Positions 31,398 through 36,164 of a stretch of 64,000 bases of DNA are shown piece by piece (the stretch's first letter is position 1; each line of letters opens with the position of its first letter). The stretch lies in contig JAJRWY010000312.1 in the NCBI GenBank assembly GCA_024276575.1, positions 1,161 through 65,160 on the forward strand, read 5' to 3'. This DNA is from Candidatus Binatota bacterium. Lineage in GTDB: Bacteria > Desulfobacterota > Binatia > UBA1149 > CAITLU01. Position numbers and translations under genes: made by a program. The notes under the pieces are model-generated. The model ran no database searches. It was not told the DNA's origin and saw only the letters and a list, made by a program, of their open reading frames with translations.

Positions 31398-31703
31398 ATG
31401 TGGCCTTTCGACAATAGCTTCTATGAGGAAATATCGGCTCGGTTCGAAACTCTGCTCAAGGACGGTGAGGACGCCGGAAATACCAATGATCTGTCGGCTT
31501 TGCTTGCTCCGGTGGATCCTTTCAACCGTTCACCCTTGTTTACACCGGTCGTGAAAGCTCTGGGCGTCGCTGCGTTGGTAGCAATGACCGGGCTTGCCGC
31601 AGCCGGTTTAGTCGTGGCCTTCGTTGCTTTCCTCGGTCTTTACTTCTTGCTTACCGAAGTATTCGGTTACGAGCTTTCTCTGGCACCGCTGCAACCGATG
31701 TAG
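31398..31703 (+). CDS. Hypothetical small membrane protein
   Basis: Begins 5 nt after the previous gene. The acidic N-terminal half is followed by two hydrophobic helices (ALGVAALVAMTGLAAAGLVVAFVAFLGLYFLL). No homology support. Confidence 0.4.
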   Translation: MWPFDNSFYEEISARFETLLKDGEDAGNTNDLSALLAPVDPFNRSPLFTPVVKALGVAALVAMTGLAAAGLVVAFVAFLGLYFLLTEVFGYELSLAPLQPM

Positions 31704-32332
31704 ATTGCGTCTTGCCGTACGGCGAGACCGAGTATTAGAGCACAGGCGACGGCTGCCGCATCGCATGCCGCCACCGCGTGCCGCCACTGGCGCAGGTGCT
31801 TGTCGTAGCCACCGGCCTGCCGGCTGCGGTCTGAATAACGCGCGGGGAAATCGAGACCGGATGGTCCGTGATCTTGCGTTCGACGGTGGCTTGGCAAGGC
31901 GCCGTAGTTACGACAATCGCTAAACAGATCAGGAAGCGGTGCCTGTGGATGCACTCCGCAAACGAAACCGCAACCACCGCCATCCGGCTCAAAAGTGTAC
32001 CATACAATCGGTACCGAAGTTTTGCGGGCATGTTCGATTTGGTTCAGATCCGAATGCTCGACTCCCGCTACTATGTAGCAGGCGATAGAAGTGGATGTTT
32101 GTGTAGCTTTGCGACCTCGTCCCCGGAGGCTTTCAATGCCTGGACCATCGCTGCGCGAGGATACGCTGACCCCCGCTGCTCTCAAGTAAAGGGATGCTTG
32201 TTCCACGCCGCGAGGGTGCCCGAGCAGTACCACTGTCGCCGCCAGTAACTTTCCCTGGCCTTCCGCACCGATGCCGGGGATGATGATCTGTCGCGCATAG
32301 CGTTCAATGCTCTCATCATCGAGAGTAGCCAT
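31667..32332 (-). CDS. ThiF/MoeB-family (E1-like) protein with degenerate nucleotide-binding site; possibly a pseudo-enzyme or decaying gene
   Basis: The N-terminus IERYARQIIIPGIGAEGQGKLLAATVVLLGHPRGVEQASLYLRAAGV aligns with ThiF MRYSRQILL..I..DGQQKLL...VLIIGLGGLG..AALYLAGAGV, but GxGxxG is replaced by GHPRGV and the DxxxxSNLQRQ segment is missing. Later segments (VPIVWYTFEPDGGGCGFV, LPDLFSDC) still follow the ThiF pattern. Confidence 0.5.
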   Translation of the reverse strand: MATLDDESIERYARQIIIPGIGAEGQGKLLAATVVLLGHPRGVEQASLYLRAAGVSVSSRSDGPGIESLRGRGRKATQTSTSIACYIVAGVEHSDLNQIEHARKTSVPIVWYTFEPDGGGCGFVCGVHPQAPLPDLFSDCRNYGALPSHRRTQDHGPSGLDFPARYSDRSRQAGGYDKHLRQWRHAVAACDAAAVACALILGLAVRQDAIYIGCSGARESS

Positions 32333-32359: not shown

Positions 32360-32599
32360 TCATTCTATGACGTTCTTCTCTATCGGCTCGACAGTGACGC
32401 CTTGCTCGGCGATCCATCGTACGGCCCGGTCAATCTCGTCTTGCTCACCTTCGAGTTCGAGAGCCATGATGCCCACATGCTCAGAAATCGAAGCACCGCG
32501 TATATTGGTGACCACGCGGAACTTGTGTCCGACGTGGTAAACGATCGGCTCCTTTATCTTCTCTTGGCTGTAGGTCAGGTAGAAACGTTGAAGTGTCAT
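32360..32599 (-). CDS. Free-standing NIL-domain protein
   Basis: The 79-aa sequence (IVYHVGHKFRVVTNIRGASISEHVGIMALELEGEQDEIDRAVRWIAEQGVTVEPI) resembles the C-terminal NIL domain of MetN. ATGA overlap with the cysM-like stop. Confidence 0.7.
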   Translation of the reverse strand: MTLQRFYLTYSQEKIKEPIVYHVGHKFRVVTNIRGASISEHVGIMALELEGEQDEIDRAVRWIAEQGVTVEPIEKNVIE

Positions 32600-33579
32600 T
32601 GGTTCTCCTCCGCGGCGGCGAGTTCATGGCGGTCGCGCCAGCCGGTCCACAGATTCGTAGATAAGTAGCGGTCGCCAAAATCGGGTAGCACTACCACCAC
32701 GCACCCGGATTGCAACTCCGCAGCCACTTCCAGTGCTGCGACTACCGCGGCACCGGAGGACTGTCCGACCAGCAGACCTTCTTTGGCGGCCAACTCGTAA
32801 ACCATCTCGTAAGCGGCATCGGTAGCCACACCCACCTTGCGGTCGAAGCCGGATTCGTCGTAAATACCCGGCACGATCGAGCTGCCCATGTGCTTCAAGC
32901 CTTCTATCCCGTGGAAGGCGTCGTCGGGCTCCACGGCTATTATTTCGACCTCAGGCTTGCGCGATCTCAAGTAGCGGCCGCAGCCCATTACGGTTCCGCT
33001 GGTACCGATCGTGGCGAGAAAGTGAGAGACGCGGCCGGCAGTTTGCTCCCAGATCTCGGGTCCTGTGGTCAGGAAGTGGGCCTCCGGATTGGCCGGGTTG
33101 TAGTACTGGTCGGGTTTGAAGTACGCGTCGGGATCGGCGTCGAACATCTTTTTGGCCAAGACGATGGAGCCGTCGGACCCTTCCATCGGATCGGACTCGA
33201 CTATTTCGGCGCCGTAAGCCGCAATCACCCGCAATCGTTCGCGTGAGGCGTTGGCGGGTATCACTAATTTTACCGGATATCCCAGCGCAGCGCCGATCAT
33301 CGCCAGCGCGATGCCGGTGTTGCCGGAAGTAGAATCGAGAATGGTTTTGCCGGGGCGTAAGTGTCCGTCTTCCAATCCACGACGCACCATGTTCCAGGCC
33401 GGGCGGTCTTTGACCGAACCGCCGGGGTTGAAGCCCTCGACTTTGGCGTACACTTCTACACCGCCGGCCAAGTGCGGGGTTACACCTCGCAGTTGGAGCA
33501 ACGGTGTGTCGCCGATCAAGTCGAGTATGCCTGTGGCCTCCGCCTCATTAAGGGTCGGCTGTTGGCGAGTCCGGTGCAC
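32596..33579 (-). CDS. cysM: CysM/CysK-family PLP-dependent sulfhydrylase (cysteine synthase B-like)
   Basis: IGDTPLLQL, PLP lysine in NPGGSVKDRPA, STSGNTGIALA, and GTSGTVMG. GTG 33579 is the only usable start upstream of the conserved ILDLIGDTPL. Confidence 0.85.
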   Translation of the reverse strand: MHRTRQQPTLNEAEATGILDLIGDTPLLQLRGVTPHLAGGVEVYAKVEGFNPGGSVKDRPAWNMVRRGLEDGHLRPGKTILDSTSGNTGIALAMIGAALGYPVKLVIPANASRERLRVIAAYGAEIVESDPMEGSDGSIVLAKKMFDADPDAYFKPDQYYNPANPEAHFLTTGPEIWEQTAGRVSHFLATIGTSGTVMGCGRYLRSRKPEVEIIAVEPDDAFHGIEGLKHMGSSIVPGIYDESGFDRKVGVATDAAYEMVYELAAKEGLLVGQSSGAAVVAALEVAAELQSGCVVVVLPDFGDRYLSTNLWTGWRDRHELAAAEENQ

Positions 33580-33854
33580 GCGCCGCCGGCGATAGCGGGA
33601 ACGATGGAGATTTCGTCGCCGTCTTTGACGGCGGACTCCAGGTCATCAAGAAAGCGAATGTCATCGCCGTTCACGTAAACATTTACGAAACGCCGTACTG
33701 AACCGTCGCGTTCGCAGATGCGCTCCTTGAGGCCTGGATGGGCTGCCTCGACGCTGTCGAGAACCGCGGCCACGGTCGAGCCTTCTGCGTCGACGGCTTC
33801 GTTGCCGCCTGTAAACTTTCTCAGGGGTGTGGGGATTCTTACCCGGACTGCCAT
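33516..33854 (-). CDS. MoaD/ThiS-family sulfur-carrier protein (CysO/MetO-like) with 21-codon extension beyond Gly-Gly
   Basis: ATG 33854 is preceded by AGGAGGAAC. The 91-aa beta-grasp-like sequence ends ...DGDEISIVPAIAGG, which is typical carrier length, and then the ORF continues ACTGLANSRPLMRRRPQAYST to TGA 33516. Confidence 0.8.
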   Translation of the reverse strand: MAVRVRIPTPLRKFTGGNEAVDAEGSTVAAVLDSVEAAHPGLKERICERDGSVRRFVNVYVNGDDIRFLDDLESAVKDGDEISIVPAIAGGACTGLANSRPLMRRRPQAYST

Positions 33855-33891: not shown

Positions 33892-35184
33892 TCACGAACC
33901 GGTGGCCGGAGAAGCAATCGTGGAAGCCTGATCGCCGCCGGCTGTCTTGCCGGCTTCAAGACGCTCGTAAAGACGGTCGAATTCGTCGAGACGTGCTGCG
34001 ATATCGTGGGTGACCGGAACCGAATCACGAACCGCCTCGAGGGTCTTGTAGCCGTTGCCGGTAATAGAGATGACGATCGACTCATCTCGGGGTATGCGGC
34101 CTTGCTCTATGAGTTTCTTGGTAACCGCCACCGTGGTGCCCCCGGCCGGCTCGGTAAACACACCTTCCGTACGCGCCAGTAGTTTGATTGCTTCCACTAT
34201 TTCTTCGTCGCTAGCTGATTCACCCCATCCTCCGGAATCCCTGACCGCTCCGAGAACGTAATAGCCGTCGGCCGGGTTGCCGATCGCGATCGACTTGGCG
34301 ATGGTATGAGGCTTTACCGGTTCGATAAGGTCGGTTCCCCGGTGAAGGGCGTTGACGACCGGAGCGCAACCGGCGGCTTGCGCGGAGTATATCTTGAATC
34401 CGCTCTGCTCGACCAAGCCTACCCGCTGCAGCTCTTCAAAGGACTTGGCGACTTTGGGCAAGATGGTGCCGCCGGCGGTAGGAACGACGATGTGTTGGGG
34501 GAGCTTCCAGCCGAGTTGTTCGGCCACTTCGAATCCGTAAGTTTTGGCTCCTTCGGTGTAAAAAGGCCGCAGGTTGATGTTTGCGAAAGCCCAGCCGTAC
34601 TTGTCCGCGATCTCGGTGCACAGGCGGTTAACGTCGTCATAATTGCCGGAGATCGCGACCGGGACCGGGTTGTATATGGCCGATCCCACCACCTTGCCTT
34701 GTTCGAGGTTGTCGGGGATGAAGATGAAGCACCGCAGGCCGGCGCGTGCTGCATGGGCGGAAACGGAATTGGCTAGGTTGCCGGTAGAGGCGCATGCGAC
34801 GGTTTCGAAGCCGAACTCGACCGCTTTGGTCAGCGCGACCGAGACTACGCGGTCCTTGTAGGAGAAGGTCGGGTGGTTGACCGAATCGTCTTTTACGTAG
34901 AGTTCCGAGACGCCGAGCACTTCTGCCAAGCGATCGGCTTTGAGCAAGGGAGTAAAACCTGAATACAGGCCGATACGCGGCTCGGACTCCACCGGAAGCA
35001 ACTCGCGATATCTCCACAGGTTGGGTGGCCTCGCTTCAATGGTCTTGCGATCGACCGCAGCCGATATCTTGTCATAGTCGTATTCTACTTCGAGGGGGCC
35101 AAAGCAGTATTCACAGACGTGGTAGGGCTTGAGTTCGTAAGCCTCGCCACATTCACGGCACTTGAGGCCTTTTACAAAAGACAT
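33892..35184 (-). CDS. Threonine synthase-family PLP enzyme with N-terminal zinc ribbon (candidate carrier-dependent homocysteine synthase, MetM-like)
   Basis: ATG 35184 is preceded by AAGGAGA. Zn ribbon CRECG...CEYC, PLP lysine in HPTFSYKDR, and CASTGN. The functional split between ThrC and MetM cannot be decided from sequence here. Confidence 0.85.
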   Translation of the reverse strand: MSFVKGLKCRECGEAYELKPYHVCEYCFGPLEVEYDYDKISAAVDRKTIEARPPNLWRYRELLPVESEPRIGLYSGFTPLLKADRLAEVLGVSELYVKDDSVNHPTFSYKDRVVSVALTKAVEFGFETVACASTGNLANSVSAHAARAGLRCFIFIPDNLEQGKVVGSAIYNPVPVAISGNYDDVNRLCTEIADKYGWAFANINLRPFYTEGAKTYGFEVAEQLGWKLPQHIVVPTAGGTILPKVAKSFEELQRVGLVEQSGFKIYSAQAAGCAPVVNALHRGTDLIEPVKPHTIAKSIAIGNPADGYYVLGAVRDSGGWGESASDEEIVEAIKLLARTEGVFTEPAGGTTVAVTKKLIEQGRIPRDESIVISITGNGYKTLEAVRDSVPVTHDIAARLDEFDRLYERLEAGKTAGGDQASTIASPATGS

Positions 35185-35198
35185 GGTAGTTATCTCCT

Positions 35199-35957
35199 TC
35201 AGCGGTCGATGCCGGGCGCTGCAGCGGCGGGCTCGTAACCGCGGGGTCGTGAACGGGTTTCCCCCGAGCGGGAGCATCGCGGGCAAGCGGGATCCCTGGG
35301 GAAATATACATGGCGCCAACGGCACCCTGACAATTCATAGATATTCATGCGGCCGGGACACAGGCTTTTGTCTCCACCAAGGTAACGAAGCGCGTCTTGC
35401 GCTTGTGCGGTTCCCACCAAGCCGGCCACTGGTGCGAGAATGCCCATAGCTGAACAGCCGCCGTCGGCTTCCTGCGGGTGGTCGTCGGGGAAAGCGCATG
35501 CGAGGCAGGCCGACACGCCCGGCACCACGGTCATCCATTGGCCGGTGGTTCTGATCACACCGCCGTAACAGAAAGCGGTGCCGGTCGAGACTGCAACGGC
35601 GTTTATCATGAATTTCGTGGCCGGGTCGTCACAAGCGTCGATCACGAAATCATGAGAGGAAACGAGGCTCTCGGCGTTGCCGGTGTTCAACGTATCTTCG
35701 ATGGGACGAATTTCAGTGGTAACAGGGCCGCCGGCGGATGCGGCTAGAGCCTTACGCGCGGCCTCGGCCTTGGGTGCTCCGACGTCGCTGTCGCCGAACA
35801 AGACCTGCCGCTGCAGGTTCGAAAGCTCGATGCGGTCGGGGTCGATAATCGTGAGTTTGGCAACTCCGGCGCCCACGAGCATGCGCGCGGCAGCGCAACC
35901 GAGGGCGCCGACGCCCACCAACAGAACCGAATCTTTTGTTTGCTGCTGCAAGTACAA
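35199..35957 (-). CDS. ThiF/MoeB-type adenylyltransferase (E1-like sulfur-carrier activating enzyme)
   Basis: VLLVGVGALGCAAARML, IIDPDRIELSNLQRQVLF, IDACDD, and zinc cysteines CLAC...CPRC. The N-terminus is very short (only 15 aa before the glycine loop) and the start is TTG. Confidence 0.85.
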   Translation of the reverse strand: MYLQQQTKDSVLLVGVGALGCAAARMLVGAGVAKLTIIDPDRIELSNLQRQVLFGDSDVGAPKAEAARKALAASAGGPVTTEIRPIEDTLNTGNAESLVSSHDFVIDACDDPATKFMINAVAVSTGTAFCYGGVIRTTGQWMTVVPGVSACLACAFPDDHPQEADGGCSAMGILAPVAGLVGTAQAQDALRYLGGDKSLCPGRMNIYELSGCRWRHVYFPRDPACPRCSRSGETRSRPRGYEPAAAAPGIDR

Positions 35958-35990
35958 AAAAACCTCTTCCAGGCGGGATAAGGAAGAGGT
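35956..35990 (-). terminator. Intrinsic terminator forming the riboswitch expression platform
   Basis: Minus strand: ACCTCTTCC - 11-nt loop - GGAAGAGGT, a perfect 9-bp stem followed by a run of T (7 consecutive T counting the last stem base). The 5' arm region CCTCTTCCTTAT can alternatively pair with the 3' P1 strand ATAAGGAGAGG as an antiterminator. Confidence 0.8.
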
Positions 35991-36013: not shown

Positions 36014-36164
36014 TCCTTATCTTTCACCCTCTTTGCATTTGCGTGAACTCGATTACGCGCTCACCGCAACGCTAAGGTGCGGGACTTAGCACCTGCCGCC
36101 CGCTTGCGCAGGCCGGTTGCTGTGGCTTCACAGGGCCCATTCCCTCCGCCACTCTGAATAAGGA
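36014..36164 (-). promoter_or_regulatory. SAM-I (S-box) riboswitch aptamer
   Basis: Minus strand: P1 TCCTTAT...ATAAGGA. The conserved core reads TTCAGAGTGGCGGAGGGAATGGGCCCTGTGAAGCCACAGCAACC, then GGTGCTAAGTCC, then GAAAGATAAGGA. It closely matches the S-box consensus (CTTATCAAGAG.GGTGGAGGGACTGGCCC.ATGAA.CC.GCAACC ... GGTGC.AATTCC ... AGATAAG). Confidence 0.9.

Follow-up and report, generated by a model that had tools for sequence, protein, structure and literature searches.

Why would an operon whose first gene encodes an E1 with all its catalytic motifs end on a gene for a second E1-like protein that has lost its active site? This question is raised by a stretch of 64,000 nucleotides (nt) of contig JAJRWY010000312.1, hereafter the window; coordinates given without a locus name are positions in it. 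There, an operon on the minus strand starts with an S-adenosylmethionine (SAM)-I riboswitch and encodes, in this order, an E1, a ThrC-like enzyme, a sulfur carrier, CysM, a NIL domain protein, and, in last position, an open reading frame (ORF) of 221 amino acids (aa). As judged from sequence comparisons, this distal protein is probably the non-catalytic subunit of a two-gene E1, i.e., the analogue of an inactive adenylation domain (IAD), paired with the active E1 of the same operon. Such a complementing pair had been proposed in an earlier note on this DNA, and it is supported by the conservation of the gene, by complementary losses at every locus compared, and by natural fusions in another phylum.

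The ORF of the distal protein exists as described in the earlier note, and the ThiF/MoeB N-terminal helix and first β-strand recognised there are borne out by NCBIfam, where the models of MoeB, ThiF, MoeZ, and archaeal SAMP-E1 align by their N-terminal ends with residues 3-56 (best E=3.8e-9). When the profile of the family is compared with PDB chains, its first ~60 residues match Uba4 (1e-14), ThiF (5e-10), and MoeB (8e-10). Within the helix, R14 corresponds in position to the arginine finger known as Arg14 in MoeB and Arg11 in ThiF (PMC13139853). Alignment with the active E1 agrees with the note that GHPRGV stands in place of GxGxxG and that the DxD...SNLxRQ segment is missing, about 22 aa being absent exactly where the active enzyme reads IIDPDRIELSNLQRQVLFGDSDVG; insertion 1 of the window protein lies at the site where active E1s hold this nucleotide-binding segment. 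The Asp, Arg, and Lys residues of the ATP-binding segment (Arg73, Lys86, and Asp130 in MoeB) are not present in the window protein, and neither this protein nor the other short forms of the family have zinc CxxC pairs. Regarding the later segments that the note had called ThiF-like, VPIVWY...GFV and AAAVACALILGL are conserved in the family, but of LPDLFSDC the LP alone belongs to the conserved core, and the remainder opens a disordered, lineage-specific insertion. Similarly, the richness in Arg, His, and Gln ascribed to the C-terminal half is there, but it is that of insertion 2 and not a trait of the family.

The AlphaFold2 model built with the family alignment has a mean predicted local distance difference test (pLDDT) of 77.7 and a predicted template modelling (pTM) score of 0.74, with a core at 90-97, 111 residues with pLDDT >= 90, and both insertions disordered. 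The fold that it predicts is a reduced E1 adenylation domain without the nucleotide site, the CxxC zinc site, and the C-terminal β-subdomain. A193 is invariant in the C-terminal helix, and H185, A188, C190, D191, and A192 are nearly so; a role of C190 as persulfide carrier was ruled out, as other residues stand in place of the cysteine in several subgroups and among the longer forms of the family. BLASTP of the distal protein against the operon E1 finds no detectable similarity (E=0.49), which rules out a recent tandem duplicate of the operon's own E1, and the word paralogue, used in the note, appears valid at the level of the superfamily or fold, but not at that of pairwise sequence similarity.

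A search of 5.8 billion proteins returned 20 homologues of 153-188 aa, 35-48% identical to the window protein, and a Pfam domain is absent in all but one of them. Seventeen positions are invariant, namely R11, Y12, R14, Q15, I16, G22, G25, Q26, G38, G42, A46, L50, A52, G54, W111, G126, and A193, and the window copy sets itself apart from the homologues by the two insertions only. In a profile search of 1.84 billion cluster representatives, 47 proteins are found at E<1e-30 and about 90 are matched over their full length, which describes an unannotated family of ~90 clusters at 50% identity, mostly of 150-170 aa. Beyond these matches, the family grades into long forms of 190-235 aa. Those of the Binataceae loci L022 and L023, plus L043 and L061 (216-233 aa), pass the Pfam ThiF model (30-99 bits) in two pieces that skip the nucleotide-binding segment; they share the same deletion and their glycine loops are dead (AGTARD, GSAHDV, GRAADV, GTGQLA), and they keep both CxxC pairs. 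In the mini forms the C-terminal β-subdomain is lost as well. A scan of metagenomes for long forms found mostly ordinary full-length ThiF/MoeB proteins and the inactive form in 1/80 loci (L061). At locus L019 (7992-8351) the distal gene encodes 119 aa, with the helix, the first β-strand, and the C-terminal helix kept and the middle strands lost, which suggests that the family may be reducible even further.

Between relatives, the ratio of nonsynonymous to synonymous substitution rates (dN/dS) of the distal gene is 0.18-0.50, similar to that of the partner E1 (0.20-0.37). The gene is clearly constrained and under purifying selection, not decaying, and it is kept wherever the operon is seen with enough DNA; both were checks that the earlier note had suggested.

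The active E1 at the head of the operon shows the converse pattern, which the note had also remarked. Its glycine loop GxGxxG is at residue 15, the Pfam ThiF match begins only at model position 20, and all catalytic motifs are present together with both CxxC pairs (CLAC and CPRC), while RYxRQ is not encoded in any frame upstream of its start. Since the riboswitch and its terminator-like hairpin reach the start codon of the E1, the truncation is built into the locus and is not an artefact of gene calling. Among the distinct loci with the main layout in which the E1 is visible, 15/15 have an E1 that starts 2-25 residues ahead of the glycine loop and lacks RYxRQ, and the distal genes of this set all carry (E/D/A)RY(A/S)RQ. 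When three loci with other operon layouts and three reached from the E1 side are added, the arrangement holds for 21/21 distinct loci: an active E1 without RYxRQ lies adjacent to a distal gene that has it.

The same picture is obtained starting from the E1. The helix is absent in all of the 91 best homologues of the window E1 (43-56% identity). In the next tier (n=29, MoeZ/MoeB types with <=44% identity, many with a rhodanese domain), 21 match R[YF]xR[QH], and the remaining eight consist of four with a variant RY helix, one fragment, and three more members of the truncated clade. Moreover, each of three truncated E1s picked from the list of E1 homologues (3/3) is accompanied by an unannotated distal gene of 151-187 aa with an ERY(A/S)RQ helix. 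The active E1 of L061 (3252-4151) still has a remnant of the helix, EIERRGREGRQ (TEIERRGREGRQLRDAL), in which a deletion of about ten residues spans the YxRQ finger; this E1 is paired with a long-form inactive E1 and, by its sequence, looks like an intermediate stage of the truncation.

In Planctomycetota, the two halves of this arrangement are found on one chain. The 469-aa protein P0170 is composed of an active E1 with the glycine loop from residue 11, a TusA domain (CPLNLL), the segment IEDTLDLERYARQVVLPEVG..., and a degenerate Rossmann-like domain. A search with this protein gave ~75 fusion clusters of 440-550 aa, with a query coverage of 74-100% in most; wherever a source is named, it is a metagenome-assembled genome (MAG) of Planctomycetota, and the databases annotate only ThiF and TusA in them. 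The first 60 columns of the window family align to fusion positions 328-387 (hhalign, probability 99%, E=7e-18). Here R338 and Q339, invariant in the 71 aligned fusions, correspond to the second Arg and the Gln of ERYARQ, so that R338 is the equivalent of MoeB Arg14 and ThiF Arg11, and an N-terminal RYxRQ motif is absent from all 71. The AlphaFold2 model of P0170 reaches a pLDDT of 90.4 and a pTM of 0.90, which for a chain of three domains means that the domains are confidently placed relative to one another; the finger helix has a pLDDT of 92 in the fusion versus 70-73 in the isolated window protein. Structure searches with this model aligned one domain at a time only. The sole genomic context of a fusion that was examined (L136, 7001-8407) is not a Cys/Met operon.

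The mechanism that we propose is as follows. The 221-aa protein would pair with the 252-aa active E1 through the usual E1 dimer interface, and the inactive subunit would provide this interface and place its N-terminal helix with R14 in trans at a single ATP site, while the active one would bind ATP and the C-terminal glycine of the carrier. The predicted heterodimer, with its one active site like SAE1-UBA2, NAE1-UBA3, and BilD, would adenylate this glycine, and the adenylated carrier would be converted into a thiocarboxylate able to feed both CysM, for cysteine, and the ThrC-like enzyme of MetM type, for homocysteine, with SAM turning the whole operon off. As for the candidates for the sulfur donor, Pfam finds no rhodanese domain in the window E1, and the Planctomycetota fusions carry TusA instead.

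There are precedents for a finger acting across subunits. In the eukaryotic SAE1-UBA2 and NAE1-UBA3 it is supplied by the inactive domain. The same is true of BilD, a bacterial E1 in which the Arg9 finger comes from the IAD (PMC10557695), and in the homodimers of ThiF and MoeB each active site is completed by the partner subunit's N-terminus (PMC12596934), with ThiF Arg11 and MoeB Arg14 being arginine fingers from the neighbouring subunit (PMC13139853). Going one step further than the pairing itself, and with somewhat less assurance, we favour the view that the E1 is obligately asymmetric, that it works in primary sulfur metabolism in the Binatia lineage and, in fused form, in Planctomycetota, and that an IAD of ~150 aa dimerises with an N-terminally truncated MoeB-type adenylyltransferase, to which it lends the finger helix. 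This would be an active/inactive architecture serving a sulfur carrier, its origin presumably independent of the eukaryotic one; that the highest sequence similarity is to the N-termini of MoeB, Uba4, and ThiF suggests an origin independent of the eukaryotic and Bil inactive domains.

The coordinates of the operon and of the parts of the distal protein are collected in the table.

Table. Features of the operon and of the distal protein in the window
Feature	Position	Strand	Basis or remark
SAM-I riboswitch aptamer	36014-36164	-	Rfam RF00162, 75.8 bits, E=5.5e-16
Terminator-like, Shine-Dalgarno-sequestering hairpin of the riboswitch expression platform (putative)	35956-35989	-	inferred from sequence
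Active E1 (E1-alpha), ThiF/MoeB adenylyltransferase, 252 aa	35199-35957	-	Pfam ThiF E=1.9e-60
ThrC-like pyridoxal phosphate enzyme with N-terminal Zn ribbon, candidate MetM-like homocysteine synthase	33892-35187	-	PALP E=7.5e-64; PRK08197 E=3.5e-93
MoaD/ThiS-type sulfur carrier, CysO/MetO-like	33516-33854	-	Pfam ThiS E=2.7e-18; SAMP1 E=1.1e-18
CysM-type cysteine synthase	32596-33579	-	TIGR01138 cysM E=3.6e-108
NIL domain protein, stand-alone, 79 aa, no cysteine	32360-32599	-	Pfam NIL E=6e-15
Probable inactive, reduced E1-like subunit (E1-beta), 221 aa	31667-32332	-	the distal gene
N-terminal helix, residues 6-15 (...ESIERYARQ), with R11, Y12, R14, Q15	32288-32317	-	invariant in family alignment
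Degenerate glycine loop GHPRGV, residues 38-43, replacing GxGxxG	32204-32221	-	sequence; family consensus G-x-(P/A)-R-G-x
Insertion 1, residues ~57-86, specific to the window lineage	32075-32164	-	alignments; pLDDT 54-55
Insertion 2, residues ~134-184, Arg/His/Gln-rich, predicted disordered, at crossover-loop position	31781-31933	-	alignment; pLDDT <50 for residues 147-170
Conserved Ala-rich C-terminal helix, residues 176-200, H-x-x-A-A-C-D-A-A-A-x-A-C-A	31733-31807	-	alignment; pLDDT 93-97

By its gene content, namely a carrier with a GG motif, an E1, CysM, and a ThrC-like enzyme, with the roles of the enzymes predicted, this is a protein-thiocarboxylate Cys/Met operon. Such a content is described for the CysO/CysM route to cysteine and for the MetO/MetM route to homocysteine, in which MoeZ is the E1 (10.1101/2024.10.14.618325). 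The ThrC-like enzyme likely starts at M47 of the listed ORF. The hairpin of the riboswitch consists of CCTCTTCC, an 11-nt gap, GGAAGAGG, and a run of seven T that overlaps the TTG start of the E1, and its 3' arm resembles a Shine-Dalgarno sequence; the minimum free energy fold is an alternative pairing, that of GATAAGGAGAGG with CCTCTTCCTTATC. An in-frame EEVFLY found 5' of many relatives' E1s corresponds to the DNA GAAGAGGTTTTTTTGTAC, which in the window forms the 3' arm of the hairpin and the T-run. A SAM-I aptamer precedes the operon in 8/9 related loci scanned, and the aptamer and hairpin together suggest that SAM would shut the operon off. In a promoter and terminator scan across the operon the counts were not above those of shuffled sequence, and no terminator-like site was found between the NIL gene and the distal gene. 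These two genes are 27 nt apart in the window, 5-8 nt in most of the relatives examined, and up to ~50 nt in two.

In the window carrier, AIAGG is followed by 21 more residues (GG-ACTGLANS...) that overlap the start of CysM (33516-33581, minus strand), while the carriers of relatives have 0-11 variable residues past Gly-Gly. As predicted from its sequence, the carrier would have to be trimmed ahead of activation, and no ORF with a JAMM motif (HxHx7-12SxxD) occurs in the 64-kb window. The NIL protein is by far the best-conserved small gene product of the operon, with ~90% identity among relatives, and its gene is missing from the operon variants L049, L052, and L133. A role for this protein as TusA substitute was ruled out by its lack of cysteine. 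On the other side of the distal gene, the convergent 101-aa ORF at 31398-31703 of the plus strand is a real conserved gene. Its product is a small membrane protein carrying LxEVFGYE(L/I/V) as C-terminal motif, and the ORF overlaps the distal gene by the 37 nt that the earlier note had reported. Its relatives adjoin an extracytoplasmic function (ECF) sigma/anti-sigma cluster, and in L001 and L002 crcB and DUF190 genes, not found in the window, lie between its homologue and the inactive-E1 gene.

The MAGs that contain relatives of the window bear the labels Candidatus Binatia, Binataceae, "uncultured Myxococcales", or Deltaproteobacteria, and the relatives share with it the flanking PolA, ECF sigma/anti-sigma, BamD-like, and ArsA-like genes. 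All loci with the main layout and enough DNA have the E1, the ThrC-like enzyme, the carrier, CysM, NIL, and the distal gene, in this order and with intact frames. More generally, the family is constantly at the end of an operon built around the E1, the carrier, and CysM, to which the ThrC-like and NIL genes are usual additions. Among the variants, the pairing is kept in L052, where the NIL gene is absent; L061 has the long-form inactive E1; and L049 has the E1, the carrier, CysM, the inactive E1, a radical-SAM-like gene, and a sulfate symporter, with ATP sulfurylase further downstream. A gene of ~410 aa with a weak radical-SAM match follows the inactive-E1 gene in L005 (1822-3063), L052 (7597-8820), L135 (12159-16296), and L049 (3296-7920); a Na+/sulfate symporter is next in all four, and L049 and L135 have ATP sulfurylase as well. 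These genes, which are not at the corresponding position of the window, may be markers of a sulfur-supply branch. In L021 (2235-4265), the E1 and the ThrC-like enzyme share one stop-to-stop frame of 677 aa, representing either a possible E1-MetM fusion or a missing stop. The E1 of L133 (P0216, GCA_035626395.1) is labelled "Candidatus Limnocylindrales", a group that we take to be Chloroflexota, while its operon and flanking synteny are as in the Binatia MAGs, and the taxonomic label or the binning looks inconsistent.

Several observations weigh against the pairing of the two proteins. The 21 loci belong mostly to one lineage with conserved flanking synteny and hence cannot be counted as 21 separate events; the variant operons and the Planctomycetota fusions provide most of the independent support. 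The distal gene evolves faster than two of its neighbours, as dN/dS is 0.06-0.13 for NIL (cleanly aligned pairs) and 0.04-0.26 for CysM, and its GC content at third codon positions (GC3) is 0.56 versus 0.64-0.71 in the neighbouring genes. With Pfam ThiF (PF00899), the window protein stays below the gathering threshold (11.1 versus 28.1 bits, E=0.22, residues 12-39 only). The earlier note had listed the lack of a significant ThiF-family hit as telling against the idea, and this is literally what Pfam gives, but the evidence from NCBIfam, the PDB profile comparison, and the fold outweighs it: by score and motifs the protein is outside the Pfam ThiF family, yet both the E1 fold and the finger helix are present. 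The loss of the C-terminal β-subdomain in the mini forms, and the 119-aa product of L019, leave the extent of the surviving dimer interface uncertain, and the truncated E1 might function unaided as a homodimer. Finally, MoeB and ThiF reportedly do not need the arginine finger for catalysis (PMC13139853), and for this reason the complementation may be structural as much as catalytic, and may serve stability or the positioning of the carrier and the sulfur donor more than the chemistry.

This last point is shared by an alternative that we regard as unlikely, although it deserves the most attention, in which the distal protein is a non-catalytic, E1-like adaptor that docks the sulfur donor, the NIL protein, CysM, MetM, the carrier, or the extended C-terminus of the carrier, in the manner of the E1-like docking domains of YcaO cyclodehydratases or of the peptide clamps of MccB and PaaA. 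The lack of a rhodanese domain in the active E1 and the position of TusA between the E1-like domains of the fusions would fit an inactive domain that organises sulfur delivery. Yet YcaO, a recognition element (RRE) or peptide clamp, and a precursor or substrate peptide are absent from all loci examined, and no model match places the protein among the ThiF-like members of the YcaO/TOMM (thiazole/oxazole-modified microcin) or other RiPP (ribosomally made, post-translationally modified peptide) systems. Its best-conserved part is the finger helix and not a novel surface. In the MoeB-MoaD structure, the C-terminal β-subdomain and the zinc site of the crossover loop contact the carrier, and these are the very parts that the mini forms lack. 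Moreover, the gene is kept in variants without NIL or ThrC, so neither of them is an obligate partner, and an adaptor leaves the constant loss of the partner E1's own helix unexplained.

That the protein has a separate function with no relation to the E1 is more improbable still. One could imagine a regulator, perhaps homodimeric, that binds a ligand and works together with the NIL domain, as the gene lies directly 3' of NIL, a domain that Pfam describes as probably substrate-binding, and a Rossmann-like core could still bind a small molecule. However, the protein retains neither the glycine loop nor any of the residues that bind phosphate and ribose, NIL is missing from some loci that keep the distal gene, and the fusions join the domain to an E1 and not to NIL. 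As for the decaying duplicate that the earlier note had offered as its alternative, the purifying selection and the conserved family described above lead us to reject it, and the probability that the gene is a pseudogene of an E1, or a spurious ORF, that has persisted at the operon's 3' end by chance alone is very small indeed. The lost catalytic motifs, the missing Pfam hit, the low GC3, the two long low-complexity insertions of the window copy, and a 3' end that overlaps a convergent gene are what decay might look like, but they have to be set against an intact frame and a conserved position in every locus, 17 invariant residues despite such low identities, the dN/dS values, a confident core fold, ~90 family representatives, and a domain kept in ~75 fusion clusters of another phylum.

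With the distal protein taken as the inactive subunit of a two-gene E1, its functionally closest counterparts are SAE1-UBA2, NAE1-UBA3, the IAD and active adenylation domain (AAD) of the BilD pseudo-dimer, and the yeast Tcd1-Tcd2. The eukaryotic SAE1/UBA2 and NAE1(APPBP1)/UBA3 likewise combine a dead and a live adenylation domain with a single ATP site (domain organisation in PMC12355090), an arrangement that in the present case is predicted, and in both the inactive subunit keeps the N-terminal helix and the arginine. They differ in size, the inactive subunit having 150-220 aa here versus 346 aa (SAE1) and 529 aa (APPBP1) in the matched PDB chains. In addition, the proteins discussed here have no catalytic-cysteine half-domains, ubiquitin-fold domain (UFD), or E2; their substrate is a sulfur carrier of amino-acid biosynthesis and not a protein modifier; and, unlike in the eukaryotic E1s, the N-terminal helix of the active subunit itself is physically gone.

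BilD resembles the predicted pair in that its inactive and active adenylation domains form a pseudo-dimer with the finger coming from the inactive one (PMC10557695), but it is a single chain, with the IAD ahead of the AAD, that includes a CYS domain and acts with an E2 and a deubiquitinase (DUB) in phage defence. Here, instead, there are two genes, or, in Planctomycetota, one chain with the two domains reversed and separated by TusA, no CYS domain, and a SAM-regulated Cys/Met operon. All other known bacterial E1-like proteins are stated to be homodimeric (PMC10557695). MoeB, ThiF, and MoeZ have the same fold, the RYxRQ helix, and a GG carrier of MoaD/ThiS type, and their finger arginine acts across the dimer (PMC13139853, PMC12596934); they are symmetric homodimers with two active sites (PMC12355090), while the window protein fails Pfam and is without GxGxxG, DxD...SNLxRQ, and the zinc site. 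In Tcd1-Tcd2, the yeast dehydratase for cyclic N6-threonylcarbamoyladenosine (ct6A), a ThiF-like heterodimer is formed in which the subunit without the key ATP-coordinating arginine gives its finger to the catalytic one (PMC13139853). This system differs in being eukaryotic, in having a tRNA substrate, and in its subunits, which are both full-size and neither of which lacks the N-terminal helix.

The operon also resembles the CysO-CysM system of M. tuberculosis and the MetO-MetM system of Streptomyces albulus. Their E1, MoeZ, is a full-length protein with a rhodanese domain, whereas in the window the E1 would be divided between an active and an inactive gene, without rhodanese, and the NIL gene is extra. 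The carrier, CysM, the ThrC-like enzyme of MetM type, and the E1 are alike, and the described systems use MoeZ as the single E1 (10.1101/2024.10.14.618325). These systems also use the Mec hydrolase; as noted above, the window has no ORF with a JAMM motif. Bacterial E1s for sulfur carriers are described as homodimers (PMC10557695, PMC12355090, PMC12596934), and active/inactive asymmetry is regarded as a eukaryotic hallmark, found in bacteria in the Bil anti-phage system only (PMC10557695, PMC12355090). No description of a two-gene active/inactive E1 in sulfur-carrier operons was found in the literature searched, the coverage of which is incomplete.

If the proposal is true, it would mean that the E1 dimer has been subfunctionalised inside sulfur metabolism, with one subunit keeping the chemistry and the other reduced to a trans-acting helix and an interface, and that an inactive partner can be as small as about 120-160 residues. 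The two-gene, long-form, and fused versions can be compared with each other, and they would then be living intermediates on the way from a full-length dead paralogue, through a mini domain, to a fusion. In this manner, the origin of heterodimeric and pseudo-dimeric E1s from homodimeric MoeB-like enzymes would become accessible to experiment with small bacterial proteins. Moreover, a testable role is offered to an unannotated family of ~90 clusters and to the unannotated C-terminal domain of the Planctomycetota ThiF-TusA proteins, and tools for pathway reconstruction may have to look for two E1 genes where the CysO/MetO route occurs in this variant.

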